Assembly: GCA_030665585.1 (NCBI GenBank)
Contig: DAOUZN010000002.1
Span: 1-38,159 of the forward strand
From: Deltaproteobacteria bacterium
GTDB taxonomy: Bacteria; Desulfobacterota; Desulfobacteria; Desulfobacterales; C00003060
Length of the DNA stretch: 38,159 nt
Direction of reading: 5' to 3'
A program made the translations under genes and the position numbers. The notes under the pieces were generated by a model. It was not told where the DNA came from and did no database searches. It saw only the letters and a list, made by a program, of their open reading frames with translations. Shown here one piece after another: positions 2,003 to 36,221 of the stretch (its first letter is position 1; each line of letters starts with the position of its first letter).

Positions 2003-3466
2003 ATGAAAACACGAAAAGGATTATCAGGGGGAAATTATAAACCCCTAAGCGATCAAGACATCGCAAGAATACACGAAACGAGCCTCAGGGTCTTCGCCGA
2101 GGTTGGTGTACAAGTGAATTTTGCTCCGGCAAGGGAGCTGTTTCGGGCTGCCGGTGCAGAGGTGGATGAGGCCAGCAGGGTTGTCAAGGTCCCTCCGGGT
2201 CTCGTGGAGGAACTGATCCACAAGGCGCCGCCTATGGTTCGCCTCTGCGGCCGGGAAGAAAACGGTGAGTTGGATTGTGAGATAGGTGGAAATGGGGTCT
2301 ATATGGGAACCGGCGGCACAGCTCTTAATGTACAAGACCCAGGATCGCAGGATTCCCGGAGAGCAACACTTCAAGACGTCGCGAATATGGCCCGCGTTGT
2401 AGATGCCTTGGACAATATCCACTTTTACATGCTCAATGTGTATCCGAACGATCTTCCTGGGGAAGAGGTGGATGTAAACCGCTTTGGGGCAGCTTTGAAC
2501 GCAACCCGAAAGCACGTGATGGGTGGAGTTTATACGCTTGAGGGCGTTAGAAACGTCATTAAGATGGCTGAGACGATCGCAGGATCTCCCGACAAGCTTA
2601 GAGAACGGCCATTCATATCCATGGTGACTTGCCTTATTAGTCCTTTCAAACTGGATGAGCAATATGCCCAACTTACCATGGAGGCAGCGCGCAACAGCAT
2701 CCCGGTGGTGGTGCCCACAGAACCTCTTTGTGGTGCAACAGCCCCAATCACCTTGGCCGGGAATCTTGTGGTTCAAAACGTGGACACGCTGTCCGGCGTC
2801 ATGTTGGCCCAACTCACTAATCCGGGCGCCCCTACACTGTATGGGTGCATATCTTCCATTACTGACCTGCGCGATATGAAGTATCTTTCTGGGGCCGTAG
2901 AAATGGGGTTGATGAATGCCGCTGCAGCGCAAATGGCGCAGTTCTACCTGCTTCCATACTACGCAACAGCGGGAATGTCCGATTCCAAGGTAAATGATGC
3001 CCAGGCAGGTTATGAATCAGCGATAACCAACCTGTTGGTTGCTCTTGCCGGGGGCAACTTGATCCATGATGCAGCCGGTTTTCTGGAATTCTGTATGACC
3101 GCCTCGTACGACAAGCTGGTCATCGACAATGAAATCATCGGCATGATCATGCGGGCCGTGGAAGGCATTCGAGTGGACAATGAAACCCTTGCTTTTGATT
3201 TGATTAAGAAAACAGGGCCTGGAGGACATTTCGTGTCTGCACGCCACACGCGGCGTCACATGCGTTCAGAGCAGTATCTGCCTGAGCTAAGCGACCGAGA
3301 AAACCGCAAGAAATGGGATGCAGAGGGCGCAAAGGATACTGCCGCCCGGGCTACCGAGAGAGTCGTTGAGATTCTAAACAACCCGGCAGAGCCGGCCATC
3401 CCATCAGATATTCGAGAACAGATAAGAAGAGAAATTCCGGGCTTGCGGTCCTTTGTCATGGATTGA
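2003..3466 (+). CDS. MttB-superfamily (trimethylamine methyltransferase-like) methyltransferase, non-pyrrolysine paralogue 1
   Basis: 487-aa uninterrupted ORF with a typical MttB-family N-terminus (LSDQDIARIHETSLRVFAEVGVQV) and length. There is no in-frame TAG. Confidence 0.8.
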   Translation: MKTRKGLSGGNYKPLSDQDIARIHETSLRVFAEVGVQVNFAPARELFRAAGAEVDEASRVVKVPPGLVEELIHKAPPMVRLCGREENGELDCEIGGNGVYMGTGGTALNVQDPGSQDSRRATLQDVANMARVVDALDNIHFYMLNVYPNDLPGEEVDVNRFGAALNATRKHVMGGVYTLEGVRNVIKMAETIAGSPDKLRERPFISMVTCLISPFKLDEQYAQLTMEAARNSIPVVVPTEPLCGATAPITLAGNLVVQNVDTLSGVMLAQLTNPGAPTLYGCISSITDLRDMKYLSGAVEMGLMNAAAAQMAQFYLLPYYATAGMSDSKVNDAQAGYESAITNLLVALAGGNLIHDAAGFLEFCMTASYDKLVIDNEIIGMIMRAVEGIRVDNETLAFDLIKKTGPGGHFVSARHTRRHMRSEQYLPELSDRENRKKWDAEGAKDTAARATERVVEILNNPAEPAIPSDIREQIRREIPGLRSFVMD

Positions 3467-3478
3467 GATTGATGATCT

Positions 3479-3614
3479 CGTAAAAAGTCATCAGGTGGAC
3501 GGCAAAGTAAAAAGCTCCAGATGCAAGGCGCGCAAATCTTGAGGAGTGAGGCGTACTTACGGTACGTCGCAACGACGAAAGATGAAGCGCAACGCCGCAG
3601 ATGGACTTTTTACG
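3479..3614. repeat. Small intergenic element with 11-bp terminal inverted repeats, CGTAAAAAGTC...GACTTTTTACG
   Basis: The arms at 3479-3489 and 3604-3614 are perfect reverse complements. The motif GACTTTTTACGA(G/A) also occurs at 149-160. Confidence 0.6.
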
Positions 3615-3642
3615 AAGCCGTCAAGATTGCAAGGGACGATCT

Positions 3643-4452
3643 ATGATCATTATTGGAGAGAAAATCAATGCTAGCCTGCCTGGCGTCAAGGCGATGATAA
3701 AGAAACGAGATGTGGCTGCGCTATTGGAACTGGCGAAAGCCCAAGCTGCGGCAGGGGCTAAATTCATTGATGTGAATGTGGCAACTGACACGGGTTCCCA
3801 TGACGACGAATTGCAGTCTATGAAATGGGCCGTTGAAACCATTCAGCAGCATATAGACACCCCTCTTTGTATTGACAGCGCAGACCCCGCGGTTCTCGAG
3901 GCAGGGCTGGAAGCGCGCCGTGGAAGGGCAACGCTTATCAACTCTGTCAAAGCCGACAACGAGCATCTGGCAGAGGTCGTGCCATTAGCCTATCATTATG
4001 AAAGCCTTCTTGTGGGCCTTGCCATGGACAAAACTGGCATTCCTAAGACAGTTGAGAAACGCCTCAAAGCCTGCGAGGAGATAGCAGGTGCCTGCGAAAT
4101 CCATAAGGTGCCCGTGGAAAGCATGTATTTTGACCCCTTGGTACTGCCGGTGAGTTCTGATGTGAAACAAGGGGTCGTGACCCTTGATACCCTTTCTGAG
4201 ATTAAGAAGCGATTCCCTGGAGCCAACACTGTGATGGGGCTTTCTAATGTATCATACGGGCTTCCCAAGCGTCCCAGACTCAACAGAGCCTTCTTGCACA
4301 TGGCCATTTATGCCGGCTTGGATGCCGCTATCATGGACCCCCTGGATGAAGAGCTGATGCTGGCGGTCAGGACAGGAGAAGCTTTGATGGGAAAGGATCG
4401 CTTTTGCAGACGGTATATGAGGGCCTTCCGAAAACAGGAGGCAGTTGTTTGA
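3643..4452 (+). CDS. Pterin-binding methyltransferase (methyl-corrinoid:tetrahydrofolate methyltransferase; MtrH / MetH pterin-domain type)
   Basis: MIIIGEKINAS...FIDVNV...PLCIDSADPAVLEAGLE...LINSV is a typical pterin-binding TIM-barrel signature. Start is set at ATG 3643, because the upstream part of the track ORF is repeat DNA. Confidence 0.75.
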   Translation: MIIIGEKINASLPGVKAMIKKRDVAALLELAKAQAAAGAKFIDVNVATDTGSHDDELQSMKWAVETIQQHIDTPLCIDSADPAVLEAGLEARRGRATLINSVKADNEHLAEVVPLAYHYESLLVGLAMDKTGIPKTVEKRLKACEEIAGACEIHKVPVESMYFDPLVLPVSSDVKQGVVTLDTLSEIKKRFPGANTVMGLSNVSYGLPKRPRLNRAFLHMAIYAGLDAAIMDPLDEELMLAVRTGEALMGKDRFCRRYMRAFRKQEAVV

Positions 4453-4640: not shown

Positions 4641-6203
4641 ATGGAGAATCAAGTGAACGAATCATTTCGTGAAGGGGTGCTGGTCAAGCCGTATGAACGC
4701 TTGAACCAGGAGCAGATCGAACAGCTGAATAGTGCTTCTTTGCAGATATTGGCTGATCCCGGAGTCTGGTGTTACAACGAACGGGCGGCCGACCTCTTTA
4801 AGGCTCACGGAGCTTCTGTTTCCGAGGAGCCTCAGACACAGGGTGTGTGTTGGCGTGTCAGCTTTCCTCCAGGTCTCGTTACCGAAGCCGTGGCTCAAGC
4901 ACCTTCCCGGATTGTCATGGGGGCAAGAAATCCGCAAAACAAGCTGGTTCTCGATGCCCAGGTGCCCCGTGTGTATTTCGGTTCCGGCTCGGAGGCCAAT
5001 GTGTGGATCGAAACCCAAATGAGGGAATTTGTGAGCGTTGAAGAGCCTCAATTGAAACGCCAGATTCCTAGTTTTACGGAGGTCAGGGGGAATTCAACGC
5101 TCCTTTGCCGAGCTGCCAAACTGTGTGAACGACTGGACCATCTTGATTTCTTCATCCGGCCATTGAATATCCAGGACCCGGATGTGACGTCAGACAATCA
5201 CGATGTGAACAAATTCTTTGCAAGCCTGAACAACATTACCAAGCATGTACAAGCAGGACTCACAAGTCTGGACAGACTCGGTGATGTTGTCCGGATGGCT
5301 GAGATCATTGCCGGCGGCCCGGAAGAGCTGAGGGCAAACCCGATCATTTCCTTCATTGCATGCGTGTTTAAGAGCCCGCTTCAGATGGTTGATGAAACGG
5401 TGGAGAAGGTCTTCGGCATTGTGGATGTCGGTCTCCCTGTGGTCATTTCCTCTTCTCCCCAAGGGGGATCTTCGGCTCCTATTCAGGAAGCCGGCATGGT
5501 GGCCCAGATCAACGCAGAGATTCTAGTCGGCATTACCCTAACCCAATTGATCAAACCGGGGAGCCCCGTACTGTATGGAAGCGTGCCTGTGCGGGCACGG
5601 CTTGACGACCTACACGACCTGTATGGCTGTCCCGAATTCAATCAATATAATATAGATTGTGTGCAAATGGCGCGCTTTTATGACGTGCCCAGCTATTCTT
5701 CCGCAGGGGTCGGAGATGCCAAGATTCCGGGCATGCAAGCTATTTATGAAAAGCTGTTTACCCATCTGTATATTGCCCTGAGCGGCGCTCAGTATATCCA
5801 CTACGCGTTCGGACTCCTTGACCGGACCAATAGCTTCTGTCCGTTGCAGGCGGTGCTCGACAATGAGCAAATTGGGAAAATCAAACACTGTCTTCGAGCG
5901 CCCAAAGTGGACGGTTCCGCAGTAGATGATACCCTCAAAATGGTAAAGAAGGTCATGGCATCCCCTTATCGGCTGTATGCACGGCATGCCCGCAAGGCAA
6001 TGCATGCCGGTGACATCTCAGATCCCTATCGCTTTGAGGCCAAGGGTCTGGAAGACAAGGTCCTGGAGAACGCCCTGGTCTATATGAACCAATTGGAGGC
6101 TGAACCGGCACCTCATCTGGACCAAAAAACGGTAGATCGGATCTTTGATGAGATACCGGGGCTCCTGCCGGGGCTTAGGCAGTCTGCAGGGCTCGGCAGT
6201 TGA
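4641..6203 (+). CDS. MttB-superfamily methyltransferase, non-pyrrolysine paralogue 2
   Basis: 520-aa uninterrupted ORF. The N-terminus LNQEQIEQLNSASLQILADPGVWC and overall length fit the MttB family. It is clearly divergent from paralogue 1. Confidence 0.75.
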   Translation: MENQVNESFREGVLVKPYERLNQEQIEQLNSASLQILADPGVWCYNERAADLFKAHGASVSEEPQTQGVCWRVSFPPGLVTEAVAQAPSRIVMGARNPQNKLVLDAQVPRVYFGSGSEANVWIETQMREFVSVEEPQLKRQIPSFTEVRGNSTLLCRAAKLCERLDHLDFFIRPLNIQDPDVTSDNHDVNKFFASLNNITKHVQAGLTSLDRLGDVVRMAEIIAGGPEELRANPIISFIACVFKSPLQMVDETVEKVFGIVDVGLPVVISSSPQGGSSAPIQEAGMVAQINAEILVGITLTQLIKPGSPVLYGSVPVRARLDDLHDLYGCPEFNQYNIDCVQMARFYDVPSYSSAGVGDAKIPGMQAIYEKLFTHLYIALSGAQYIHYAFGLLDRTNSFCPLQAVLDNEQIGKIKHCLRAPKVDGSAVDDTLKMVKKVMASPYRLYARHARKAMHAGDISDPYRFEAKGLEDKVLENALVYMNQLEAEPAPHLDQKTVDRIFDEIPGLLPGLRQSAGLGS

Positions 6204-24940: not shown

Positions 24941-25016
24941 GGGCGATTAGCTCAGCGGATAGAGCACAAGCCTCCGGAGCTTGGTGTCGCCGGTTCGATT
25001 CCGGCATCGCCCTCCA
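24941..25016 (+). tRNA. tRNA-Arg (anticodon CCG), CCA encoded
   Basis: Manual cloverleaf: acceptor GGGCGAT/ATCGCCC, D stem GCTC/GAGC, anticodon stem CAAGC/GCTTG with loop CTCCGGA, variable GTGTC, T stem GCCGG/CCGGC with loop TTCGATT, discriminator T, CCA. 76 nt. Confidence 0.9.
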
Positions 25017-26391
25017 ATTGAAGCCACCTGCTTACTTGTTCAATGGCTTCCTTCTTGCTCCGGATCTCTCCATTCAGTCGCCCTTCTTCCACTTTTTCCA
25101 ACAACCTGCCGATCAGCTCAGACGGTTCCAGATTGAAATGCCTGATCAGGTCATGGCCGGTGACAAGCCTAGCTGCAGCCAACTTGGGCTTTAGGTCGAA
25201 AAAATATGTGGAAAAAATCTGTTCCAAAAACGTGATCAATGCGCTGAGGGACTCAGGTCCTACACTGGCCTTGGCACGCTGATCCGCCACGCTGTGGAGT
25301 AAGAGGCCAATGAGGTCGTCTTGGAATTTTCTGACAAAGCGAACGATCCCTCGCGAGCCGAGGTTCGCTCGCTGATGGGCATCAAACAGCAACAGGGGAC
25401 GTCGGTGGTTTTGTACGATGAATGTCACGTATGATCGGTCTTGACCAGACATCCTGAGCCTGGCACAGATACGTCGGGCAAGACGGCCCCCCTCCTCCTC
25501 ATGGCCCAGGAACCGGACCCTCCCCCTTTGGTCAACACTGCGTGTTTGGGGTTTGCCTAGGTCATGAAGCAAGATCGCCCATTTCAAAAGAACCTTTCGG
25601 TCGTGCGCCTGCAGATAGTTTGCGATGGGTTTGACAAACCTGGGCCAGAGGCCGCCAGGGTTGATCAGGATCGTCTCCATTTCTTGGTAGGCCCGCAGGC
25701 TGTGTTCAAACACATCCCATCCATGGATCTCGCCCTGGAGGCAGCCTCGACACGGTTCAAGTTCAGGGATGATCCGAGTCAGCAGGCCGGCTTGGAACAT
25801 TTGCTTGACGTAATGAAACGACCCCTCAACCTTCATCATTTTGAAGAGCTCAGCGGTTATGCGTTCTCCGGCCGATTCGGCCACTAGGAAGCTCTGCTTG
25901 TTGATCACAGCCAGGGTTTCGGGTTCAATACGAAAACCCAGGACAGCCGCCAACCGAAAGGCCCTGAGCATCCTCAAGGGGTCAGCCGAGACCGCCTCTT
26001 GGGAAACAAGTCGGATGGTTTTGGACCTTATGTCATCGAGGGCTCCCACAGCATCGATCAGCCTTTTGGATCGCAAATCATAGGCCAGGGCGTTGATGGT
26101 AAAGTCCCGCTTCTTCAGATCGTCTTCAATGCTTTTTCCAGCCATCGGGGAAAAATCGAGGACCTCATCGCCTGAAATTACCCTGTAGAGGGCCTTGTTG
26201 TCTTTGCCGATTTCGATCATCCGGGCACCCAATTGTGTGGCCACCTTGTTCGCAAAGGCCCTGGCGTCACCGGGCACTGCAAAGTCATGGTCCTTGGAGA
26301 ACCGATGAAGGATATCGTCGCGCACAGAGCCTCCTACCAGATAAACAGGGCCGATCTGGGAAAGACTGTAAAAGTGGGGGCCTAACTTCAT
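24952..26391 (-). CDS. cca: CCA-adding enzyme / poly(A) polymerase-family tRNA nucleotidyltransferase with HD domain
   Basis: VYLVGGSVRDDILHRFSKDHDFAV, RDFTINALAY and HD motif LLHDLGKP. The last ~21 codons are antisense to tRNA-Arg. Confidence 0.8.
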   Translation of the reverse strand: MKLGPHFYSLSQIGPVYLVGGSVRDDILHRFSKDHDFAVPGDARAFANKVATQLGARMIEIGKDNKALYRVISGDEVLDFSPMAGKSIEDDLKKRDFTINALAYDLRSKRLIDAVGALDDIRSKTIRLVSQEAVSADPLRMLRAFRLAAVLGFRIEPETLAVINKQSFLVAESAGERITAELFKMMKVEGSFHYVKQMFQAGLLTRIIPELEPCRGCLQGEIHGWDVFEHSLRAYQEMETILINPGGLWPRFVKPIANYLQAHDRKVLLKWAILLHDLGKPQTRSVDQRGRVRFLGHEEEGGRLARRICARLRMSGQDRSYVTFIVQNHRRPLLLFDAHQRANLGSRGIVRFVRKFQDDLIGLLLHSVADQRAKASVGPESLSALITFLEQIFSTYFFDLKPKLAAARLVTGHDLIRHFNLEPSELIGRLLEKVEEGRLNGEIRSKKEAIEQVSRWLQLEGDAGIEPATPSSGGLCSIR

Positions 26392-27211: not shown

Positions 27212-28261
27212 TCATCCCAAGGTCCTTTGCCTCAACAAGTGATCCAAGATAACCAGCCTCACCATGGCCTCGCACACCGGCACAATCCTCGGAATGGCAG
27301 AAACGTCGTGCCGTCCCTTGACGGAAATCGTTGTGGGACGCCTGTGGACATCGATGGTTTGTTGTTCGATCTCAATAGAGGGGATGGGTTTCACCGCTGC
27401 TCGGACCACAATATCGTCACCATTGGAAATACCTGCCAGAATCCCCCCGGCCCTGTTAGTGACAAAGCCTTCAGGCGTGATCTCGTCATTGCATTGAGAA
27501 CCCATTAGCCGGGCTGCCTCAAGACCCACCCCGATTTCAACGGCCTTGACAGCCCCTATGCTCATGAGAGCCTTTGCAAGGTCTGCGTCCAGCTTGTCAA
27601 AGACAGGCTCTCCAAGCCCCGGGGGGCACCCTTGCGCCACGACCTCGACGATGCCCCCTGCGGAATTGCCAGACGCCTTGATTTCCTTTATCTTTTCTGT
27701 CATCCCGTTCGCTGCGTCCGGATCCGGCGCAAAAAAGGCATTCTCGTCAACAGCCTCCAGGTCCACCCGCTGTGCCCTGATCCCTGCAAGCTCCAGGGTG
27801 TAGGCCTTGACCTTGATACCTTCCTGGTCCAGGGCCCTTTTGGCCACAGCCCCTGCTGCAACCCGGGCTACGGTTTCTCTGCCCGAAGCCCTGCCGCCGC
27901 CCCTGTGGTCTCTTATACCGTATTTTTCCAGGTAGGTGATATCCCCGTGGCCGGGCCTGAAGGTATCCTTAATGGTCCTATACGCCTTACTGTCTACGTC
28001 CTTGTTGTAAATGAGAAGAGCGATAGGCGTTCCCGTGGTCCTTTCCTCAAAGATGCCGGAAAGGATTTCTACCTTATCCGGTTCCCGTCGAGGCGTACTT
28101 GAAGCCGCCCGGGGCCTTCTCCGGTCCAGCTCCTCCTGAATGTCCGATTCGGTCAGGGGAAGCCGAGGAGGACAGCCGTCAATGACGACCCCAAGCCCTC
28201 TTCCATGGGATTCGCCCCAGGTGGTGACCACAAAGGCTTTGCCAAAGCTATTTCCCGACAT
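27212..28261 (-). CDS. aroC: Chorismate synthase
   Basis: The N-terminus [27 protein letters not shown]...RRRPG-type pattern and the length (349 aa) fit. Confidence 0.9.
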
Positions 28262-28290
28262 AAGATCTCCCTCGTACGGCGATTGTGTAA

Positions 28291-28809
28291 CTACTCAGCC
28301 TGCAAATACCGAACTATCTGATCAACGAGTCCATCAATGGTCAGATTTGAGGTGTCCACAGAGAAATCCGCAACCCCTTCATAAATGGGCATCCTCTGCT
28401 TCAGGAGGCTCTCGGTCTCCTCATAGATATCGCCCTCCGACAACTTGGGCCGCTGCTTCGGGCTTGACTCATCGCCCTGGATTCTTCGAATCATAGTATC
28501 CATATCTGCCTTCAGCAGGACGAAGGTACCCTTGTCGCGGAGCCACGCCACGTTGTCTCTGTCCATGACCGCGCCACCGCCCGTGGCAATGACGCAATCA
28601 TCCTTGGCAGCAATTTCTCGGATGACTTCTTTTTCCCTTGCCCGAAAAAAGGGCCAGCCTTGCCCGGCCACCATATCACTGATGGTCCTACCAAGTTTTT
28701 CTTCAAGATAGGCATCCGCATCGTAAAAAGGTCTTCCGAGCCTTTTGGACAGGGCTATCCCCACCGCGGTCTTTCCCGTGCCCCTATACCCGATCAAGAC
28801 GATGTTCAT
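28291..28809 (-). CDS. aroK: Shikimate kinase
   Basis: P-loop [15 protein letters not shown], ...DADAYLE..., GGGAV. 172 aa. Confidence 0.85.
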
Positions 28810-28879
28810 AAGATCATATACGGGCTGTATTCTTGAACCCAGGCCAGGTGTATAAGGGATATGGGCTGTGGCATATTCC

Positions 28880-29365
28880 TTAATCCCGAAATTCTCTTCT
28901 CACCATATCCGCTGCTGCTCGCACCGCCATCAGGTAACCGTTTTTTCCAAAACCAGCGATTCGGGCCTTCACGACATCGGCCATCAAGGACTTGTGCCTG
29001 AAGGGCTCTCGCCGGTAAATGTTGGAAAGATGGACCTCAATAATCGGTACGTCCAGCATCAAGAGGGCGTCTCTGATGGCCACACTGGTGTGGGTATAGG
29101 CAGCCGGGTTGATGATGAGAGCGTCATAAGCCTTCATGGCCTCATGGATCTTTTCCACCAAGGCCCCTTCATAGTTCGACTGGAAGGTCTCTGCTACCAT
29201 CCCGCAATCTTGTGCGGTTTGTTTGATCTCTGTGTCGATCTCTTCCAGCGTCGCGGTGCCGTACCAAGTCGCCTCGCGCTGGCCCAGCATGTTCAGGTTT
29301 GGGCCGTGGATGATGAGAATCCTGGGTTTTTTCTCATTGCCTGACATTTTTCTGTGTCCGTTCAT
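28880..29365 (-). CDS. aroQ: Type II 3-dehydroquinate dehydratase
   Basis: ILIIHGPNLNMLGQRE...QSNYEGALVEKIHEA...IINPAAYTHTSVAIRDA...EVHLSNI. Start is set at ATG 29365 (GGAGGAG upstream), and ATG 29347 is also possible. The track's longer start at 29449 is unlikely. Confidence 0.85.
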   Translation of the reverse strand: MNGHRKMSGNEKKPRILIIHGPNLNMLGQREATWYGTATLEEIDTEIKQTAQDCGMVAETFQSNYEGALVEKIHEAMKAYDALIINPAAYTHTSVAIRDALLMLDVPIIEVHLSNIYRREPFRHKSLMADVVKARIAGFGKNGYLMAVRAAADMVRREFRD

Positions 29366-29414
29366 CGCCCCCTGACGACTCCTCCGAGCCGCGCGTTGAC
29401 ACCCCGGGGAGTTT

Positions 29415-29595
29415 AGGGCTCGCGCAAAAATAACTTCACATTTTGTCATCTCAGCTTCAGCCCATCTTTGACCGATGCCTCATTCGCAAACACCTCGAAA
29501 TAGCGCGCTATTCCTCGGGTTTTGCTCAATCGGATCGGCCAAACCTGAACCAAATCTGAGCGCCAACTCTGCGAACTTGTTCTTGCGCGAGCCCT
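29415..29595. repeat. 13-bp perfect inverted repeat (AGGGCTCGCGCAA / TTGCGCGAGCCCT) bracketing a 155-bp spacer inside the aro operon
   Basis: The arms at 29415-29427 and 29583-29595 are exact reverse complements. The second arm abuts or overlaps the aroA stop codon. Confidence 0.7.
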
Positions 29596-30857
29596 TAGCC
29601 CAGAGATTCCAGCTTCTCCCAAAAATCCGGGAAAGACTTTCTCACACAATCAGGGTCCTTAATAGCCACCCCCGCTATGGCCAAGCCCGCGATAGCAAAA
29701 CTCATGGCAATCCGGTGATCGCTATAACACTCTATCTCCGCTGCCCGTGTGGCTATACCCTGAACGATCATTTCATCGGCCTTTTCTTCTGCTTTGGCAC
29801 CAATCTTTCGAAGCTCGCGGGTCAGCGCTGCTATCCTGTCCGACTCTTTAATGCGCAAATGTCCTATGTTTTTCAGGATCGTCTTACCCCTTCTGAAGGC
29901 CGAGACCACAGCCAGGGCGGGGACCATGTCGGGCATATCCTGAAGGTCCAGGCAAAGATCTCCATGATTGGATAACGGCCCTGTGATTGCCACGCCGTTG
30001 CCAGAGGTGGTGACTCCGCATCCTAAGCTCTCAAGGACATCTGCAAAGCGTATATCTCCCTGGACGGAGTCTGGATGGATATTTGATATCCTGACTGTGC
30101 CTCCGCAGATGGCGGCCGCGGCCATGAAATAAGTAGCACTCGAGGCATCACCCTCTACACCATATTCTCTTGCCCTGTACGCTTGAGGGGCCTTCACGAA
30201 GAACGTATTGTCATGAGGCGCCAAAACTTCCACGCCAAAGCGCGCCATCACATCCAGAGTCATCTGCACGTAAGGCCGCGACGGGAGCATACCCTGCACC
30301 TCGATCTCCGTATCCCTTCTGGCGTAAGGGGCCGCCAGCAGGAGGGCCGAGAGATATTGGCTGCTAAGTCCGCCAGACAAGACAGCCTTTCCGCCGGCAA
30401 GTCCCGTTGCTCGAACTTGAACAGGAGGGCAGCCGTTTCCTTCCATACATACGGCCTCGCCCCCGATGTTTTTCAAGGCATCGACAAGGGCTTGGATGGG
30501 CCTCTGACGCATGCGGCTGTTACCATCGAGTAAAAAGGTCCCGTGTCCCAGACAGACAGTGCCCGTCAGGAGCCGAAGTCCGGTTCCGTTGTTGCCCAAA
30601 TAGATAGGTCCTGAAGGGGTCGTCAGTTCACCGCCGGTCCCTTGAATACTAAGTTCACCGCCCTGCCGCCGGATCGTTGACCCCAGCAGGCTGAGGGCAT
30701 TCATCAAATGCTCGGTATCTTCGGAAACCAAGGCCCCCCTGATAAAGGACTGACCCTTGGCAAGGGCTGCAGCGACCAGGGCCCTTTGGGTGTAGCTCTT
30801 CGAGCCCGGCACCCGAACCGCGGCATGGATCTTTTTAATCGGTTTGATGAGCCTCAT
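29595..30857 (-). CDS. aroA: 3-phosphoshikimate 1-carboxyvinyltransferase (EPSP synthase)
   Basis: VRVPGSKSYTQRALVAAALA...SEDTEHLMNALSLLG and ...LRIKESDRIAA. Start is set at ATG 30857, overlapping the upstream stop (ATGA). Confidence 0.9.
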   Translation of the reverse strand: MRLIKPIKKIHAAVRVPGSKSYTQRALVAAALAKGQSFIRGALVSEDTEHLMNALSLLGSTIRRQGGELSIQGTGGELTTPSGPIYLGNNGTGLRLLTGTVCLGHGTFLLDGNSRMRQRPIQALVDALKNIGGEAVCMEGNGCPPVQVRATGLAGGKAVLSGGLSSQYLSALLLAAPYARRDTEIEVQGMLPSRPYVQMTLDVMARFGVEVLAPHDNTFFVKAPQAYRAREYGVEGDASSATYFMAAAAICGGTVRISNIHPDSVQGDIRFADVLESLGCGVTTSGNGVAITGPLSNHGDLCLDLQDMPDMVPALAVVSAFRRGKTILKNIGHLRIKESDRIAALTRELRKIGAKAEEKADEMIVQGIATRAAEIECYSDHRIAMSFAIAGLAIAGVAIKDPDCVRKSFPDFWEKLESLG

Positions 30858-31990
30858 GTCCTTAAGAGCCTTTCGTAAACCACTGCTTCCATCTCTCTCA
30901 CCGGGGCCTTTCTTCCCGTCCACGTGCTAAACTGCTCAACACCCTGGTGCACGAACATATGAAAGCCGCTTGCCACCTTGCATCCTGCCGCCTTGGCCTC
31001 CTTCAACAGCATAGTCTCAACTGGATTGTATATCACATCCGCCACAGCCTTGTAGCTGCTCAGCACCCCCTTTGGCACAGGCATGGCATCTGTCTTTGGA
31101 TACATCCCCACAGGTGTGGTATTGACCAAACAGTCTCCCCCAACCGCTCCGATCTCAGGAAGAAGCGCAAAGGCACAATCAAATTCGTCGGCCAGTGAAC
31201 GCCCTTTTTCCTCAGACCGGTTGACGACCATGACGTTTCCCCCCTTGCTGGTTATGCCGAAAACCACTGCCCTTGCCGCCCCGCCTGCGCCAACCACCAC
31301 GAATGTGTGACCTTCTACGGGAAGCAAGACTTCAAGGCACCTGACCGCACCGACCCAGTCCGTGTTGGTCCCTCGTATGCCGTCTTTTCCAAAGACCAAG
31401 GTATTGACCGCGCCAATCTTTTCGGCTGTATCATCGATTTCGTCTATGAGCCCGAGGATCTGTGTCTTAAAGGGATGGGTCACACTGGCCCCCTTGACGT
31501 TCAGGGCCTTCATTCCGGTCAAGGCGCCGGGTAGATCCTCCACCTCAAAGGGCAGATAAATGGCGTCTAGGCCGAGGAGCCCAAAAGCGGTATTGTGCAT
31601 CAGTGGGCTCATGCTGTGTGCCACAGGGTTTCCGATGATCCCGTAGAGGGCCGTTTCCCCGGTAAGGGTGCAACATGGGTCGGCATCAGCCGATTCCACC
31701 GGGCGTGCAGGTCCGCCAAATGAGGCTGCGGATTGAATCCTTCTTGATATGGCCACGATCTTTCCGAATATTTCCTCGATCTCGCGAGCCTTGAGTGGCC
31801 CCTTGTTGTGCTGGGCCAGATACTTGAACACAGCTTGTTCTCGCCAGGGGTCACGGATATCAAGACCCTCTTGAACCTTGAGTCTTCCGATCTGAAGAGA
31901 AACCGAGGCGCGTTCGTTCAACAGCCTTAAGAGCTCATGGTCTAGCGCCTCAATATCCTGCCTGAGTCGGTTTAGGGAACCCTTGCTCAT
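30854..31990 (-). CDS. aroE: Fusion protein: AroQ-class chorismate mutase (N-terminal ~90 aa) plus shikimate 5-dehydrogenase
   Basis: N-terminal LRQDIEALDHELLRLLNERASVSLQIGRLK...RDPWREQAV is a chorismate mutase type II pattern. From about residue 115, YGIIGNPVAHSMSPLMHNTAF...NVTHPFK...GTNTDWVG...VVGAGGAARA is AroE. Confidence 0.8.
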   Translation of the reverse strand: MSKGSLNRLRQDIEALDHELLRLLNERASVSLQIGRLKVQEGLDIRDPWREQAVFKYLAQHNKGPLKAREIEEIFGKIVAISRRIQSAASFGGPARPVESADADPCCTLTGETALYGIIGNPVAHSMSPLMHNTAFGLLGLDAIYLPFEVEDLPGALTGMKALNVKGASVTHPFKTQILGLIDEIDDTAEKIGAVNTLVFGKDGIRGTNTDWVGAVRCLEVLLPVEGHTFVVVGAGGAARAVVFGITSKGGNVMVVNRSEEKGRSLADEFDCAFALLPEIGAVGGDCLVNTTPVGMYPKTDAMPVPKGVLSSYKAVADVIYNPVETMLLKEAKAAGCKVASGFHMFVHQGVEQFSTWTGRKAPVREMEAVVYERLLRT

Positions 31991-33093
31991 CTCCTGAGTC
32001 CTTCAATGACATCTATGATCACGCTTTGGGGGACTTCTGATGTGACGAAAGGAACCCCTATTTTTCTGATCAGTACAAAGTAGAGCCGCGCCCCAACAGC
32101 CTTCTTGTCGCTGGCCATAAAGCCGAGGATTGCTTTTGTATTGAAGTCCCCCGGGATCTCGGTGGGCAGCCCGTACTGTTTAATCACACCAACAATTCTC
32201 TTACAGGACCTTTCATCCAAGTAGTCAAGTCTGTATGACATCTTGGCGGCTGCCGCCATCCCTATGGCCACGGCTTCACCGTGAGTAAGCCGGTAGTCTG
32301 ATGCAGCCTCTATGGCGTGTCCGATGGTGTGGCCAAAATTTAGGATGCGCCTCAGCCCCCCTTCCTGTTCGTCCATCTCCACGATGCGGGCCTTTATCCT
32401 ACAGGACCGCTCCACCAGGATCCTCATGACAGGAAGTTGCCGTTCAACAACGGCGGCCCTCTCCTGCTCCAACAGTTCGAACATCTCTTCATCGCTGATG
32501 ATGCCATACTTGATGATCTCGGCCAATCCGTTCTTGAAGTCTTTGTCAGACAGCGTCCTCAACAATGATAGGTCGATAAAAACGGCTCTTGGCTGGTAGA
32601 ACGTCCCGAGCAGGTTTTTCCCTTCCGGAAGATCAATGCCGGTCTTGCCACCCACGCTACTGTCCACTTGGGCCACAAGGGTGGTGGCAATTTGAACATA
32701 GGGCACGGAGCGTTTGTAGATGGAGGCAATAAATCCGGCCAGATCACCCACCACGCCGCCACCCAGGGCAATGAGTAGGGACTTGCGGCTGACGTTGAGC
32801 TCAATGAGTTGTCTCGCGACATCAAGGACCGTGCCCATCGATTTTGAGGCTTCGCCTGCCGGTATTTCAATCAAATCAACGGGCACCCCAGCCGGCTGGA
32901 GTTTTTCTCGGACCATTTCGCCATAAAGGGAATTGACCCCCGAGTCTGTAATGACGACGCACCGATCCACCCCATCTTGGGCCTTGATCATGACGCTCAG
33001 ACGATCCAGCACACCCTCGCCAATGTCAATCTCATAGGAATCGGACCCAGATCTTTCCAGGTTGACTCTAATGGGCTCCATCTTTTTCTGCAT
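31987..33093 (-). CDS. aroB: 3-dehydroquinate synthase
   Basis: [62 protein letters not shown] and HTIGHAIE. Start is ATG 33093 or 33081, overlapping the aroF end. The stop overlaps the next start (ATGA). Confidence 0.9.
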
Positions 33094-34105
33094 ATCCTTT
33101 TCTGACAATCTTGGCAATCGATTCGATCTCATCCATGAGCTTATAGAATTTTTCAGGCTTAAGCGACTGGGGCCCATCTGACAGGGCATGGGCCGGGTCT
33201 GGATGGACCTCTATGAGCAAACCGTCTGCCCCCACTGCTACAGCCGCCTTGGCCAAGGGCAGGACAAACCGCCACTGGCCTATGGCATGACTTGGGTCAA
33301 CAATGACCGGCAGGTGGCTTTTGTCCTTCAAGACCGGCACGGCACTAATATCCAGGGTGTTGCGCATAGCCGTCTCAAAGGTACGAATCCCACGCTCGCA
33401 GAGTATGACCTGGTCGTTGCCCGAGGCCATGATGTATTCGGCAGACATGAGCAGCTCGTCCAGGCGGGTCATCATCCCCCTTTTTAAGAGCACCGGCTTT
33501 TTGGCATGGCCTATGGCCTTTAGAAGCGCAAAATTCTGCACATTCCTCGTGCCCACTTGAAGGACGTCCGCGTATCTTTCAACCAGTTCAACATCCGAGG
33601 AACTCATGACCTCGGTAACCACCGGCAACCCCGTTTTTTCCCGTGCTCGCGCCAGGATTTTTAAGCCCTCTTCACCCATCCCCTGGAAACTGTATGGCGA
33701 TGTCCTCGGCTTAAAGGCCCCCCCTCTCAGCATGGAGGCCCCGCCTTTCTTAACCACATCAGCGCATTCCATGAGCTGCTCTTCACTTTCTACCGCACAG
33801 GGCCCTGCCATAACGACAAACTCCGGCCCGCCAATCTCCACATCGCCCACCCGAATGACGGTATTGCCGTCCTTGGTTTCTCGGCTTGCAAGCTTGTAAG
33901 GCTGCAAGATGGGCATGACTTTCTCAACACCCGGCATGTCTTCGGCGGCCTTCAAACGCACCTTCTCTCGCTCGTCCCCAACCGCGCCAATAATGGTCCG
34001 CTCCACTCCTCTCGAGACATGAGCCTTGTATCCCACTGACTCGATCCACCTAATCACCTCGTCGAGCTGCTTCTCGTCCGCTTTCTTCTTCATAACGATG
34101 ATCAT
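33068..34105 (-). CDS. aroF: 3-deoxy-7-phosphoheptulonate (DAHP) synthase, type I-beta, with an N-terminal ferredoxin-like regulatory domain
   Basis: Catalytic core [13 protein letters not shown]...[18 protein letters not shown]...[11 protein letters not shown]...KRG. A ~70-aa N-terminal domain ([22 protein letters not shown]...) resembles Thermotoga-type DAHPS. Confidence 0.85.
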
Positions 34106-34132
34106 CTTTAAGCCCTCCTTCTTCGCATAAAT

Positions 34133-34167
34133 AAAAAGGGCCGCGGTGATCTTTGCCTCCGCGACCC
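34133..34167 (-). terminator. Hairpin 2: intrinsic-terminator-like structure immediately upstream of the aroF RBS (candidate attenuator terminator)
   Basis: Minus-strand RNA is GGGUCGCGG-AGGCAAAGAUCA-CCGCGGCCC-UUUUUAUUUAU, a 9-bp stem with one G-U pair. It ends about 27 nt before the aroF ATG. Confidence 0.6.
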
Positions 34168-34180
34168 TTTGCCCCTAAAC

Positions 34181-34218
34181 AAAAAAGCCGCGGGCAGGCG
34201 GTCCGGCCTGCTCGCGGC
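34181..34218 (-). terminator. Hairpin 1: strong GC hairpin followed by U6
   Basis: Minus-strand RNA is GCCGCGAGCAGGC-CGGACC-GCCUGCCCGCGGC-UUUUUU, a 13-bp stem with one mismatch. It lies 18 nt after the leader ORF stop. Confidence 0.6.
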
Positions 34219-34236
34219 TTAAGGATTTCATATGGA

Positions 34237-34347
34237 TTAGCTACTGCTTACCCGTCCTCCTTCCAGCCTTGAACCGACCGGTCCAAAGAACCAATAATAG
34301 TAGCCAAAATAAAACATGTTCATTGCCATGTCGTTTCGGAATTTCAT
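34237..34347 (-). CDS. Candidate aromatic-rich leader peptide (36 aa): MKFRNDMAMNMFYFGYYYWFFGPVGSRLEGGRVSSS
   Basis: Hand translation of the minus strand. AGGAG lies 10 nt upstream of the ATG. Codons 12-21 are F Y F G Y Y Y W F F. The ORF is below the 60-aa cutoff of the ORF track. Confidence 0.55.
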   Translation of the reverse strand: MKFRNDMAMNMFYFGYYYWFFGPVGSRLEGGRVSSS

Positions 34348-34370
34348 ACTTCTTTTTCTCCTGAACTAAA

Positions 34371-34402
34371 AATATATTGCCATGCTTCCCGCACCCTGTC
34401 AA
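34371..34402 (-). promoter_or_regulatory. Candidate sigma70-type promoter for the leader/aro operon
   Basis: Perfect -35 TTGACA (34402-34397), then an AT-rich CAATATATTTTT region 17-20 nt downstream. The -10 hexamer is ambiguous. Confidence 0.35.
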
Positions 34403-34430
34403 CCAAAAAATAAAAGGAGGAACCCGTTCT

Positions 34431-36221
34431 TCATCGAATATATCCCTTTTCCTCAAGATATAGCATGACCTCCTGCGCGGCTTCGTCCGGGCTCACTTCC
34501 GTGGTATCTATGGTGATTTCTGGATCGGAGGGGGGAACGTAAGGGTCATCAACCCCCGTCACTCCCTTCATCTTCCCGGCCCGTGCTTTGGCGTAGAGCC
34601 CTTTGCGGTCCCGTTGCTCGCACACTTCCAAGGGGGTGGCAAGGTAGACCTCGATATAGCCCCCATAGCGAGTGATCAACTCCCGGTTGTGGCGCCTGGA
34701 TTCCTCGTAGGGCGCAATAGGGGCGCACAGGGCGATGCCCCCGTTCTTGGTGATTTCGCTTGCCACAAATCCGATGCGCGTAATATTGAGATTTCTGTGC
34801 TCCTTGGAAAAGCTCAGCTCACTTGAAAGATTCCTTCTCACGATGTCGCCATCCAGTAGGGTCACTGGCCTGTCCCGCATTTCCATGAATTTTACCATCA
34901 ACACCTTGGCCAGGGTGGATTTGCCTGCCCCGGATAGCCCTGTGATGAACACGGTAAAGCCCTGCTCCGACCGGGGTGGATAAGCCCGCCTGAGCTCTGC
35001 CACAACCTCCGGATAGGAAAACCATGCGGGTATCTCGAGGCCACTTTCCAACCTGCGCCGCAGTTCGCTTGAGGATATCTGCTTGACGTTCATCCCGGGC
35101 TCCACCTGGTCTTCCGGAATATACTCGGCCCTTTCTTCCACATAGACCATCTTCTTCAGGGGAACCATCTTGATGCGTGTTTCCCCTTCAAAGGATTGAA
35201 CCAACTCCTGGGCCGCATGGAGCGGGTAAAACCGCTCTTGGGTCCTGTTGTTGGCAAAGGGATCTCCATGATCATCGGCCACCATGAAATGGCTACACCC
35301 ATAGTTTTTGCGAATGATGGCCTGCCACAGGGCTTCCCGAGGCCCGGCTTTTCGCATGGCCAGGGGGATCAAGCTCAGCATGATCATGTTCTTGGGGTAT
35401 TGCTTGACGATTTCCTGATAGCACCGTACCTGGGTATAGTGGTCCAGATCTCCTGGATGGGTCAGTCCCACGACAGGCTGCAGCAGGATACTGGCGCCCG
35501 CCTCGCGGGCGGCCTTGAGCGTCATTTCCTTGTGGGCACAGTGGAGATGTTTCTCGGTTTGAAAGCCGATCACATGGCGCCAGCCATGTTGGGCAAACCG
35601 GCGATGGGTTTCGGCCGGAGTCCGCCTAAGCGCCTTGAAATCATAGTGCATGGGAAGGTGAATCCCCTCAAGGGACCCTCCTAAATACCAGGGCTCCACC
35701 TGCTCATAGAGAGCTCTCACACCTGGGTGTTTTTCAGGATCCTCGGTGCCAAATACACAGCCCGCTTCCCGCTTCCTGTCAGGTTTCCAGATATCCTTTA
35801 CGGTGAGCACCGCCAGCATGAATCCTTCCCCGTCTCTCAGGGCCACAGGCTGGCCTTCCTCAAGGCTTCGGGCCATTTCTTCGCTCACATCCAGGCAGAC
35901 AGGCATGGGCCACACCGTACCATCCGTAAGACGCATCTCATCTAAAATACTTTCATAGTCTTCTTCACCGAGGTAACCTGTAAAGGGATAGAATGCCCGG
36001 TTGAGAAGCAGCTCAAGGTCGCAAAGCTGCCTCTTGTTGAGATTCACAGAGGAGTAACCCAGGGCAGCTTCTTTTAAGCTTTCAATGCGCCTAAAATGAA
36101 CAAGAAGACTTTCAGAGTAATCACGTGCTGGTTTCATAGCCGATCCATGACTTGGCATCTCAGCAGTTTGTGGCCTTATGTGTTTCAACAGAGGTTCTTC
36201 TGAAGACGATGAATGAACCAA
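34431..36221 (-). CDS. cysC: Two-domain protein: ATP-sulfurylase-like N-terminal domain (substituted motifs) fused to adenylylsulfate (APS) kinase
   Basis: C-terminal APS kinase is FTVFITGLSGAGKSTLAKVL...LDGDIVRRNL...FSKEHRNLNITRIGFVASE. The N-terminal domain aligns to Sat but has FQTEKHLHCAH (versus QTRNPMHRAH) and VADDHGD (versus VGRDHAG). The track start is TTG; ATG 36158 or 36137 are alternatives. Confidence 0.75.
   Translation of the reverse strand: MVHSSSSEEPLLKHIRPQTAEMPSHGSAMKPARDYSESLLVHFRRIESLKEAALGYSSVNLNKRQLCDLELLLNRAFYPFTGYLGEEDYESILDEMRLTDGTVWPMPVCLDVSEEMARSLEEGQPVALRDGEGFMLAVLTVKDIWKPDRKREAGCVFGTEDPEKHPGVRALYEQVEPWYLGGSLEGIHLPMHYDFKALRRTPAETHRRFAQHGWRHVIGFQTEKHLHCAHKEMTLKAAREAGASILLQPVVGLTHPGDLDHYTQVRCYQEIVKQYPKNMIMLSLIPLAMRKAGPREALWQAIIRKNYGCSHFMVADDHGDPFANNRTQERFYPLHAAQELVQSFEGETRIKMVPLKKMVYVEERAEYIPEDQVEPGMNVKQISSSELRRRLESGLEIPAWFSYPEVVAELRRAYPPRSEQGFTVFITGLSGAGKSTLAKVLMVKFMEMRDRPVTLLDGDIVRRNLSSELSFSKEHRNLNITRIGFVASEITKNGGIALCAPIAPYEESRRHNRELITRYGGYIEVYLATPLEVCEQRDRKGLYAKARAGKMKGVTGVDDPYVPPSDPEITIDTTEVSPDEAAQEVMLYLEEKGYIR

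Follow-up and report, generated by a model that had tools for sequence, protein, structure and literature searches.

A probable leader-peptide transcription attenuator with a mixed Phe/Tyr/Trp codon run and two serial terminators ahead of a shikimate operon in a Desulfobacterales-like bacterium

Introduction

The locus considered here raises the question of how a complete shikimate operon could be made to respond to the supply of the very amino acids that it serves. It lies in a stretch of 38,159 nucleotides (nt) of a Deltaproteobacteria bacterium, called the window below, where a minus-strand gap of 326 nt separates the stop codon of an ATP-sulfurylase/APS (adenosine 5'-phosphosulfate)-kinase fusion gene (34431) from the ATG of aroF (34105), the gene for 3-deoxy-D-arabino-heptulosonate 7-phosphate (DAHP) synthase. 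An earlier note, made from the sequence alone, had named a sat-like/cysC gene and a DAHP synthase gene as the neighbours of this gap, with which the Pfam assignments agree, and had proposed that the gap holds a ribosome-mediated attenuator with a leader peptide of mixed Phe, Tyr and Trp codons. The analysis described here points the same way, and we put at roughly 0.8 the probability that the element is a classical ribosome-mediated (leader-peptide) transcription attenuator of the whole common shikimate operon, whose extent is as follows.

27212..34105, minus strand: operon that the element would control, comprising aroF, aroB, a chorismate mutase-shikimate dehydrogenase fusion gene, aroA, aroQ, aroK and aroC (Pfam)

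This operon provides all seven steps of the common pathway together with chorismate mutase, and its product chorismate is the precursor of exactly Phe, Tyr and Trp. We infer that its genes are co-transcribed, since the open reading frames (ORFs) lie on the same strand and are closely spaced or overlapping.

The leader region of the window

Re-reading of the sequence bore out every coordinate and count that the earlier note had given for the leader ORF, which runs from 34347 to 34237 behind an AGGAG 10 nt upstream and in which nine of the ten codons 12-21 specify aromatic residues (4 Phe, 4 Tyr and 1 Trp); no other ORF of up to 80 amino acids in the six frames of the 38-kb window tops 5/10. The two U-tailed, GC-rich hairpins reported ahead of aroF were likewise recovered, and the parts of the element, together with its ribosome-binding sites (RBS), are arranged as follows.

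34358..34362, minus strand: leader ORF RBS, AGGAG, 10 nt before the ATG
34237..34347, minus strand: leader ORF of 36 codons plus stop (ATG at 34347, TAA at 34239-34237), encoding MKFRNDMAMNMFYFGYYYWFFGPVGSRLEGGRVSSS
34285..34314, minus strand: proposed regulatory codons 12-21, UUU UAU UUU GGC UAC UAU UAU UGG UUC UUU, read as F Y F G Y Y Y W F F
34239..34305, minus strand: hairpin 1:2, formed by the aromatic-codon segment and the distal leader ORF, -29.4 kcal/mol
34258..34284, minus strand: region 2, the upstream strand of the putative antiterminator, GGACCGGUCGGUUC..GGCU..AAGGA, codons 22-30, pairing with 34225-34200
34181..34220, minus strand: terminator T1 (regions 3:4), AAGCCGCGaGCAGGC-CGGACC-GCCUGCcCGCGGCUU followed by UUUUUU, hairpin 34220-34185, -27.1 kcal/mol, U6 to 34181
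34154..34200, minus strand: relay helix 4:5, in which the T1 3' arm and U tract (34200-34181) pair with an AAAGGG flank and the T2 5' arm (34170-34154), a 16-bp duplex of -22 to -23 kcal/mol
34127..34170, minus strand: terminator T2 (regions 5:6), AAAGGGUCGCGGaGG-CAAAGA-UCaCCGCGGCCCUUU followed by UUAUUUAU, hairpin 34170-34135, -20.8 kcal/mol, U-rich tail to about 34127
34113..34121, minus strand: aroF RBS, GAAGGAGGG, read from the sequence, with the aroF ATG at 34105

Both terminators lie between the leader stop (34237) and the aroF ATG, and the leader RNA folds with a z of -4.8 relative to dinucleotide shuffles. Region 2 has as its partner (34225-34200) the 5' arm of T1 along with the T1 loop and the adjoining upstream flank, and the resulting 2:3 duplex joins 34284-34271 with 34213-34200, 34268-34265 with 34219-34216 and 34262-34258 with 34225-34221; its energy is -30.9 kcal/mol in the window and ranges from -20 to -32 kcal/mol in 41 of 41 aligned members of the family described below. 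From codon 15 (34305) onward, the regulatory codons double as the 5' strand of hairpin 1:2, and relay helix 4:5 and T2 are mutually exclusive. That the T1 3' arm can pair with the T2 5' arm had already been pointed out in the earlier note; this duplex proved to be real and longer than claimed, as its 16 bp include the T1 U tract and the AAAGGG flank, and it is conserved and covaries. Of the terminator/antiterminator choice that had been proposed, the cross-pairing stood, whereas the primary antiterminator, made by codons 22-30 (34284-34258) with the T1 5' arm, had been missed.

Upstream of the leader ORF, the sequence contains the following candidate promoter, from which transcription is predicted to start near 34367.

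34374..34402, minus strand: putative sigma-70 promoter, with -35 TTGACA (34402-34397), a 17-nt spacer and extended -10 TGgCAATAT (34382-34374), read from the sequence

The -35 hexamer TTGACA is perfect, and the -10 (CAATAT) is weak with an extended TGg. A promoter and terminator scan of the window called neither this promoter nor T1 and T2, which is attributable to the loop-length and -10 rules of the tool and, for the promoter, to its weak -10. The possibility that T1 and T2 belong to a dispersed repeat was discarded, since each occurs in a single copy in the window. A match to the L31-Firmicutes leader (RF03156) at 34257-34288, of 27.9 bits against a gathering score of 33.3, was set aside as chance; it covers the small hairpin of region 2 and the GGAAGGAG tract in the leader ORF, and the downstream gene is aroF. 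It was also observed that a purine-rich, RBS-like tract, GGAAGGAGGA, lies inside the leader ORF (34253-34262, minus strand) just past region 2; it is GGAGG-like in most relatives and pairs with the pyrimidine-rich aromatic codons within hairpin 1:2.

Aromatic-run leaders at DAHP synthase loci

A survey of 160 loci encoding relatives of the window DAHP synthase, drawn from genome and metagenome collections, was used to look for comparable leaders; the nearest loci belong to metagenome-assembled genomes of Desulfobacterales, Syntrophales and other Thermodesulfobacteriota. A leader was defined as an ATG-started ORF of at most 70 amino acids, with at least 7/10 aromatic residues, on the sense strand within 300 nt upstream, and the counts refer to the 151 loci for which 300 nt or more of upstream sequence was available. 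Such an ORF was found at 41 of these 151 loci, compared with 0/151 on the antisense strand and 0/151 in shuffled sequences. Loss of the aromatic run in orthologous leaders, which the earlier note had named as an outcome that would count against an attenuator, is therefore the opposite of what was found. In addition, at least one intrinsic terminator stands between the leader ORF and the gene at 39 of the 41 loci, versus 17 of the 96 loci that lack a leader. Several apparently unrelated families can be told apart among the leaders.

Thermodesulfobacteriota: ...FWFSFYYYYF..VCPS...
Other 'delta' lineages: MHT.RYYYYYYF...
Clostridium: ...FYSFFYFMFWGFYFSAGY...
Lachnospiraceae and Oscillospiraceae: AYFYFYYYF...
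Gemmatimonadota, Calditrichota and Chloroflexota: other leader families

Across these unrelated families and many phyla, the in-frame run of aromatic codons is the one feature kept, which suggests that such leaders, apparently without common descent, have arisen several times. Since aromatic-run leaders occur at about a quarter of the loci sampled, in Thermodesulfobacteriota, Clostridia, Chloroflexota, Gemmatimonadota and Calditrichota, we lean, though not strongly, towards the view that Phe/Tyr/Trp-run leaders with terminators are a widespread and uncatalogued form of control of type I-beta DAHP synthase genes and shikimate operons.

Some of these loci show peculiarities of their own. The Clostridium leaders (L050, L063, L071, L077 and L080), situated some 120-240 nt ahead of the DAHP synthase gene, share the long motif F.FF.F.FWGF.FSAGY.FCKK, which is too conserved for a mere codon run and probably reflects a constraint of RNA structure, like the VCPS segment in the family of the window. 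In two Anaerolineae/Chloroflexota loci (L016, 952-1035; L025, 944-1030), the aromatic-run ORF (e.g. MKNITFNAFYFYFYFGF...) is found about 470 nt ahead of the DAHP synthase gene, instead of at about 100-150 nt, and L012 (1045-1215) and L026 (933-1100) have longer aromatic-rich ORFs of 55-56 amino acids about 290-400 nt upstream; an extra element or a small gene may be present between the distant ORFs and the DAHP synthase gene. Moreover, a Bacillota metagenome genome (L024) carries a T-box at 1166-1437, which scores 103.5 bits against a gathering score of 93 and takes the place that the aromatic leader peptide has in other relatives; judged from its position, this is an apparent example of the interchange of sensing systems for the same gene.

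The homologous family of the window leader

Twelve relatives, with 67-83% identity in DAHP synthase, have the layout of the window, in which a T-rich stretch and CTTGACA are followed by the leader ORF, T1, mostly T2 and then the aroF RBS. CTTGACA with the T-rich stretch before it stands upstream of the leader ORF in 13 of 13 family members inspected, and a purine-rich RBS precedes most of the homologous leader ORFs. The aromatic run is kept in every member, and at its end lies a conserved RNA segment with the consensus GGUCUGCCCAUCG, translated as VCPS. The T1 consensus is GCCAUGGG...CCCAUGGC followed by U6 or more and, in most members, the T2 consensus is GGCCAUGG...CCAUGGCC followed by U5; T2 of the window, tail included, can be lined up base by base with that of L004 and of L081, and its homology to these and further T2 copies is clear. 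In L006 (1430-1500), L007 (610-686) and L083 (830-900), T1 is present and T2 is absent, and a GC-rich hairpin without a U tract (GCUGUCUGAAAGCCGGGAGCAGGG...CCCGGGCGGCUGAAAGGAG) runs into the aroF RBS, where it may act as a translational, not transcriptional, second layer.

The association of the element with DAHP synthase was also approached by an RNA pattern blind to genes, consisting of GTCTGCCCATCG, a gap of 25-55 nt and GCCATGGG, with which 185,579 species genomes were scanned. Among the 120 pattern matches listed, 31 have an in-frame aromatic leader, and in all 31 a DAHP synthase gene follows 139-301 nt downstream. With 20 fixed bases, about 34 matches are expected by chance in this collection, and the other matches (e.g. 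in Collinsella) were set aside as being close to the chance number or as unrelated conserved coding sequence. The element thus appears exclusive to DAHP synthase genes as far as sampled. This result, together with the 41 leaders against none in the controls and the terminators that accompany 39 of them, lends support to the mixed-leader attenuator proposed earlier.

An alignment of 41 sequences, mostly from Syntrophales and other Thermodesulfobacteriota, in which 28 found by the RNA pattern were added to an earlier set of 13, was then used to examine both alternative structures. In the terminator state (T1 and T2), 89.8% of the cells are paired, compared with 26-56% when the partners are slid, and 78 cells show double changes versus 26.6 +/- 5.1 after shuffling, a control that ignores phylogeny and in which 0 of 500 shuffles reached 78. 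For T1, which no aligned homologue lacks, 94.5% of the cells are paired and compensatory changes occur; for T2, 83.9% of the cells are paired and six pairs have double changes. In the antiterminator state (2:3 with 4:5), 87.6% of the cells are paired, compared with 26-45% when slid, and under the same control 31 double-change cells stand against 11.3 +/- 3.0, with 0 of 500 shuffles reaching 31. One pair of helix 4:5 covaries (AU:11, GC:10, CG:5), and the 13-sequence alignment gives the same picture for both states. Besides, the palindromic core of all four arms shifts in step, being CCAUGG in most relatives and CCGCGG in the window, which fits selection on the hairpins and on the cross-pairing alike.

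The closest genome relative, L001 (88% DAHP synthase identity), is arranged differently. Its homologues of T1 and T2 directly follow the stop codon of a 280-amino-acid HDOD-like gene, and in the region examined (943-1310) there is no leader ORF ahead of them; aroF has instead a different leader of 265 nt. In this second leader, the mini-ORF MIDVYWHYWKFNQGIME occupies 1091-1144, a long inverted repeat of GGAAU and AUUCC is present (fold z of -4.2) and there is no obvious terminator. L001 looks like a rearrangement in which the attenuator terminators came to serve as a gene-end terminator and a second aromatic-codon leader came to stand before aroF. The idea that it prompts, that T1 and T2 are ordinary gene-end terminators, was rejected, since 12 more distant relatives keep the order of leader, T1, usually T2, and aroF.

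The same locus is one of two observations that could favour a broader alternative, namely that the ORF is a stable small hydrophobic protein or a chance ORF and that T1 and T2 merely terminate an independent short transcript or the upstream gene, as their homologues at the 3' end of the unrelated HDOD-like gene would do; the other is that the leader peptide is indeed hydrophobic. However, a chance ORF or small protein is at odds with the excess of aromatic-run ORFs on the sense strand over the controls, with the lack of conservation of the peptides outside the aromatic run and the RNA-constrained VCPS segment, and with the absence of a Pfam match to the leader peptide. Plain terminators are equally hard to reconcile with the 27 nt that follow T2, which leave no space for a separate aroF promoter, so that expression of the operon must cross both hairpins, and with the presence of a hairpin and U tract of its own behind the sat-cysC gene. 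This explanation is accordingly regarded as hardly credible, and an attenuator that acts on the operon is preferred.

Folding of the nascent leader RNA

The earlier note had suggested folding as a test for mutually exclusive structures. When a 28-nt ribosome mask was moved along the leader, equilibrium folding always favoured the terminators, a result that by itself would tell against a switch; any switch must accordingly be kinetic, like that of trp. Since control in classical attenuators is kinetic, snapshots of the nascent transcript were folded in place of the equilibrium, starting at the 3' edge of the ribosome and ending at the T1 loop or at the T2 loop, and these do switch with ribosome position. 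In the snapshot to the T1 loop, with the A site at codons 11-19, the minimum-energy fold is 2:3, at -35.7 kcal/mol in the window, and the same was seen in every relative tested. With the A site at codon 22 or later, region 2 lies under the ribosome and 2:3 is gone in the window and the relatives examined, and with the A site at codons 8-10, upstream of the aromatic run, hairpin 1:2 (34305-34239) takes up region 2. The stall positions that expose region 2 in these snapshots consequently coincide with the run of aromatic codons. When the snapshot is extended to the T2 loop, 2:3 and 4:5 are both present and T1 is missing in the unconstrained minimum-energy fold, for the window as for seven of nine T2-bearing relatives. 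In this model, therefore, the snapshots reproduce the classical logic, in which a stall on the regulatory codons would give read-through and smooth or absent translation would give termination.

These folds also bear on a narrower alternative, according to which attenuation at T1 is real and the 4:5 relay is non-functional, T2 being an independent fail-safe terminator or a hairpin that stabilises the 5' end of the aroF mRNA, with constitutive or leaky read-through. It is favoured by the completed transcript, in which T2 is preferred over 4:5 by about 4 kcal/mol with 2:3 held, by the complete absence of T2 in the subgroup of L006, L007 and L083 and its degenerate U tract in L081, and by the fact that a share of the 4:5 complementarity is automatic, because both stems have the palindromic core in common. 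On the other hand, both hairpins show the same coordinated change of that core from CCAUGG to CCGCGG, and the complementarity extends beyond the palindrome, as with GCUAUCCAUGGC and GCCAUGGUAGC in L082 and L086; the 4:5 pair that passes among AU, GC and CG, and the presence of 4:5 in the unconstrained minimum-energy fold of eight of ten sequences, likewise speak for the relay. A non-functional relay is thus considered unlikely, and a functional one is preferred, being less certain than attenuation at T1 because T2 is missing or poorly tailed in the relatives just named.

A further explanation would place the sensor in trans, in an RNA-binding protein, an uncharged tRNA or a small-molecule riboswitch, with the ORF incidental or auxiliary. 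Aromatic pathways are elsewhere controlled by TRAP or by T-boxes, a T-box stands at the same position in one relative, and equilibrium folding gives no intrinsic switch. Nevertheless, a covariance-model search (cmscan) of 33500-35000 with E up to 10 found no Rfam Phe, Trp, His, Thr, Leu or Lactococcus leu/phe leader family, and the leader has no Rfam match to E 10 beyond those at chance level. At the Rfam gathering score, the window and 40 related loci gave only one T-box, tRNAs, 5S rRNA and a PYLIS match. The T-box model RF00230 has no match in the window, in a test that works, since the model detects the T-box of L024. Furthermore, an in-frame aromatic run kept across unrelated families would be needless for an RNA that binds a ligand or a protein, and the stall positions that expose region 2 fall on that run. 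Control by a trans-acting factor is for these reasons held to be very improbable, and sensing by a ribosome on the leader ORF remains the preferred reading.

Proposed mechanism and points that weigh against it

In the proposed mechanism, the input sensed would be charged tRNA-Phe, tRNA-Tyr and tRNA-Trp. Transcription would proceed from the dedicated promoter with TTGACA at 34402, and a ribosome would load onto the 36-codon leader. When aromatic aminoacyl-tRNAs are plentiful, the ribosome would pass codons 12-21 and cover or clear region 2 (34284-34258), leaving the T1 5' arm free, so that T1 would form, with T2 as a second terminator, and transcription would stop before aroF. When the ribosome stalls on the aromatic codons, region 2 would be exposed just downstream and would pair with the emerging T1 5' arm (2:3), after which the freed T1 3' arm and U tract would pair with the T2 5' arm (4:5). 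With 2:3 and 4:5 in place, neither terminator would form, and RNA polymerase would read through into aroF-aroB-CM/aroE-aroA-aroQ-aroK-aroC (CM, chorismate mutase). One stall would in this way be relayed through two strand exchanges, first 2:3 and then 4:5, disarming two serial terminators. With no ribosome over the aromatic run, as in the absence of translation, hairpin 1:2 would form, sequestering region 2 away from T1, and termination would follow. What the analysis shows is the sequence elements, with their conservation, their covariation and, as far as sampled, their restriction to DAHP synthase genes; the transcription start, leader translation, the order in which the helices would form and the reaction to amino-acid supply are inferred.

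Several points weigh against this interpretation. At equilibrium, T1 has a probability of 0.97 for every position of the ribosome mask and, once T2 is complete, the terminator state is better than 2:3 with T2 by about 1 kcal/mol, so the mechanism hinges on kinetic precedence, for which the support comes from folding snapshots. At the T2-loop stage, two of ten sequences (L081 and L008) do not have 2:3 with 4:5 as their minimum-energy fold. The window version of the element is itself somewhat idiosyncratic: its region 2 (CCGGUCGGUUC) deviates from the family consensus, and its ORF is 8-10 codons longer than the homologues, continuing past the homologous stop, which is out of frame in the window, and therefore a ribosome at the stop codon leaves region 2 uncovered. 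The -10 hexamer of the candidate promoter is weak and escaped the promoter scan. The two closest relatives are uninformative or different, as L001 has lost the leader and L002 has no leader in its 288 nt of upstream sequence. In the covariation analysis, the columns of the region-2 core and the T1 5' arm core cannot covary, because the pattern that chose the 28 added sequences fixes them. Lastly, the source organism is an uncultured Desulfobacterales-like bacterium.

Neighbouring genes and other features of the window

The region that adjoins the leader -35 on its upstream side (34405-34454, minus strand) contains a weak hairpin over the stop codon of the ATP-sulfurylase/APS-kinase gene, followed by UUUUAUUUUUU. 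This hairpin is probably a terminator that shields the aro leader against transcription arriving from upstream, and its T run may serve in addition as an UP-like element of the promoter. At the other end of the operon, aroC is followed by an ORF for a CCA-adding-enzyme-like protein (24952-26391) together with a Tpt1/KptA-like gene, and a tRNA gene (24941-25013, plus strand, 65.4 bits) on the opposite strand overlaps the 5' end of this ORF (start 24952).

Elsewhere in the window, the Rfam model PYLIS_3, which describes the pyrrolysine insertion sequence of mttB, matched positions 2975-3074 (plus strand, 65.1 bits), inside an uninterrupted MttB-family ORF of 487 amino acids (2003-3466). Since this ORF has no in-frame stop, the match is probably coding similarity of a non-pyrrolysine MttB homologue and not a recoding signal. 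Nearby lie a second MttB-family gene (4641-6203) and genes for a pterin-binding protein (3601-4452), a protein with a B12-dependent methionine synthase activation domain (1259-1936) and a MarR regulator (353-1036).

Implications and comparison with known systems

If it works as proposed, one RNA switch that integrates the charging of three tRNAs governs entry to the whole aromatic pathway in this lineage. The DAHP synthase encoded by aroF has an N-terminal ferredoxin-like domain (Pfam), and if this domain is regulatory, as the Pfam match suggests, allosteric control of the enzyme may be put on top, giving two layers. Judging from the comparative data, many anaerobic phyla may commonly rely on leader-peptide attenuation to control DAHP synthase genes. 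An RNA-family model could be built from the family alignment, and the leader ORFs are better not annotated as hypothetical proteins. As the mechanism is a textbook one, it opens no new question and will be of little surprise to the specialist; the points of interest are its breadth over phyla, the sensing of three amino acids at the trunk of the pathway and the double-terminator relay, a compact natural design for tight, low-leak attenuation.

In the literature consulted, which leaves out the survey of Lopatovskaya et al. 2010 (Mol Biol 44:128), no account was found of aromatic-run leaders in Thermodesulfobacteriota or Clostridia or of a two-terminator relay. Another survey of 2010 describes leader-peptide attenuation as essentially limited to Proteobacteria and Actinobacteria (PMC2965389), and putative attenuators ahead of aromatic 'supraoperons', with leader peptides undescribed, were taken from a prediction database in 2005 (PMC1173090). 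We regard the element as a new family of a familiar type of regulator, and leader-peptide control of the same target has precedent elsewhere. The earlier view that no element of this kind had been described does not hold in the light of two such precedents, one in Corynebacterium glutamicum and one in Acholeplasma.

The functionally nearest system is that of C. glutamicum, where an attenuator was predicted at aroR-aroF (PMC4046766), and the aroR leader (Phe-Tyr-Phe) ahead of aroF is described, in the summary of Neshat et al. 2014 given via PMC11802643, as allowing more read-through under limitation of Phe and not of Tyr. As in the window, a short leader ORF with aromatic codons stands directly before the DAHP synthase gene and, as far as that summary goes, a stall at Phe/Tyr codons raises read-through of the terminator, which is the same logic at the same target step. 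Unlike aroR, which belongs to another phylum and has Phe-Tyr-Phe only, the window leader is 9/10 aromatic and includes Trp, and it is followed by two tandem terminators and a seven-gene operon. Homology of the two leaders, compared by published description alone, is unlikely. The corynebacterial DAHP synthase is presumably also of a different subclass (I-alpha).

The uORFC-13-1 motif of Acholeplasma aroF comprises a predicted upstream ORF (uORF) with Phe codons, promoter elements, an RBS and an adjacent terminator (Brewer et al. 2021, PMC8632094). It was found solely upstream of aroF, in 24 representatives from Acholeplasma and some environmental sequences, and ribosome-mediated attenuation was proposed for it (PMC8632094). 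By its description, its codon signal is a U run for at least one Phe, with a single terminator, whereas the window has a run that is 9/10 aromatic and two terminators.

T-box leaders, which in Firmicutes stand at this same position before aromatic biosynthesis genes, also make termination conditional on tRNA charging, but they sense uncharged tRNA by direct RNA-RNA contact, and the window has no T-box match. T-boxes are known interchange partners of leader peptides.

The textbook models for the mechanism are the trp, pheA and his attenuators of Escherichia coli and Salmonella, with which the element would share the alternative hairpins 1:2, 2:3 and 3:4, termination when there is no translation (superattenuation) and a terminator stabler than the antiterminator, which implies kinetic control; in textbook attenuators, the stabler terminator yields only when the antiterminator forms first. 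The window leader has no sequence similarity to these leaders (no Rfam match to E 10). Each of them responds to one amino acid of a terminal branch, whereas that of the window would respond to three amino acids at the common trunk. The his leader also has a chain of more than two alternative helices. Unlike the leaders of E. coli and Salmonella, that of the window would use its second alternative helix, 4:5, to disable a second complete terminator, so that the Thermodesulfobacteriota family would add a distinct design in which two successive strand exchanges are set against two serial terminators.

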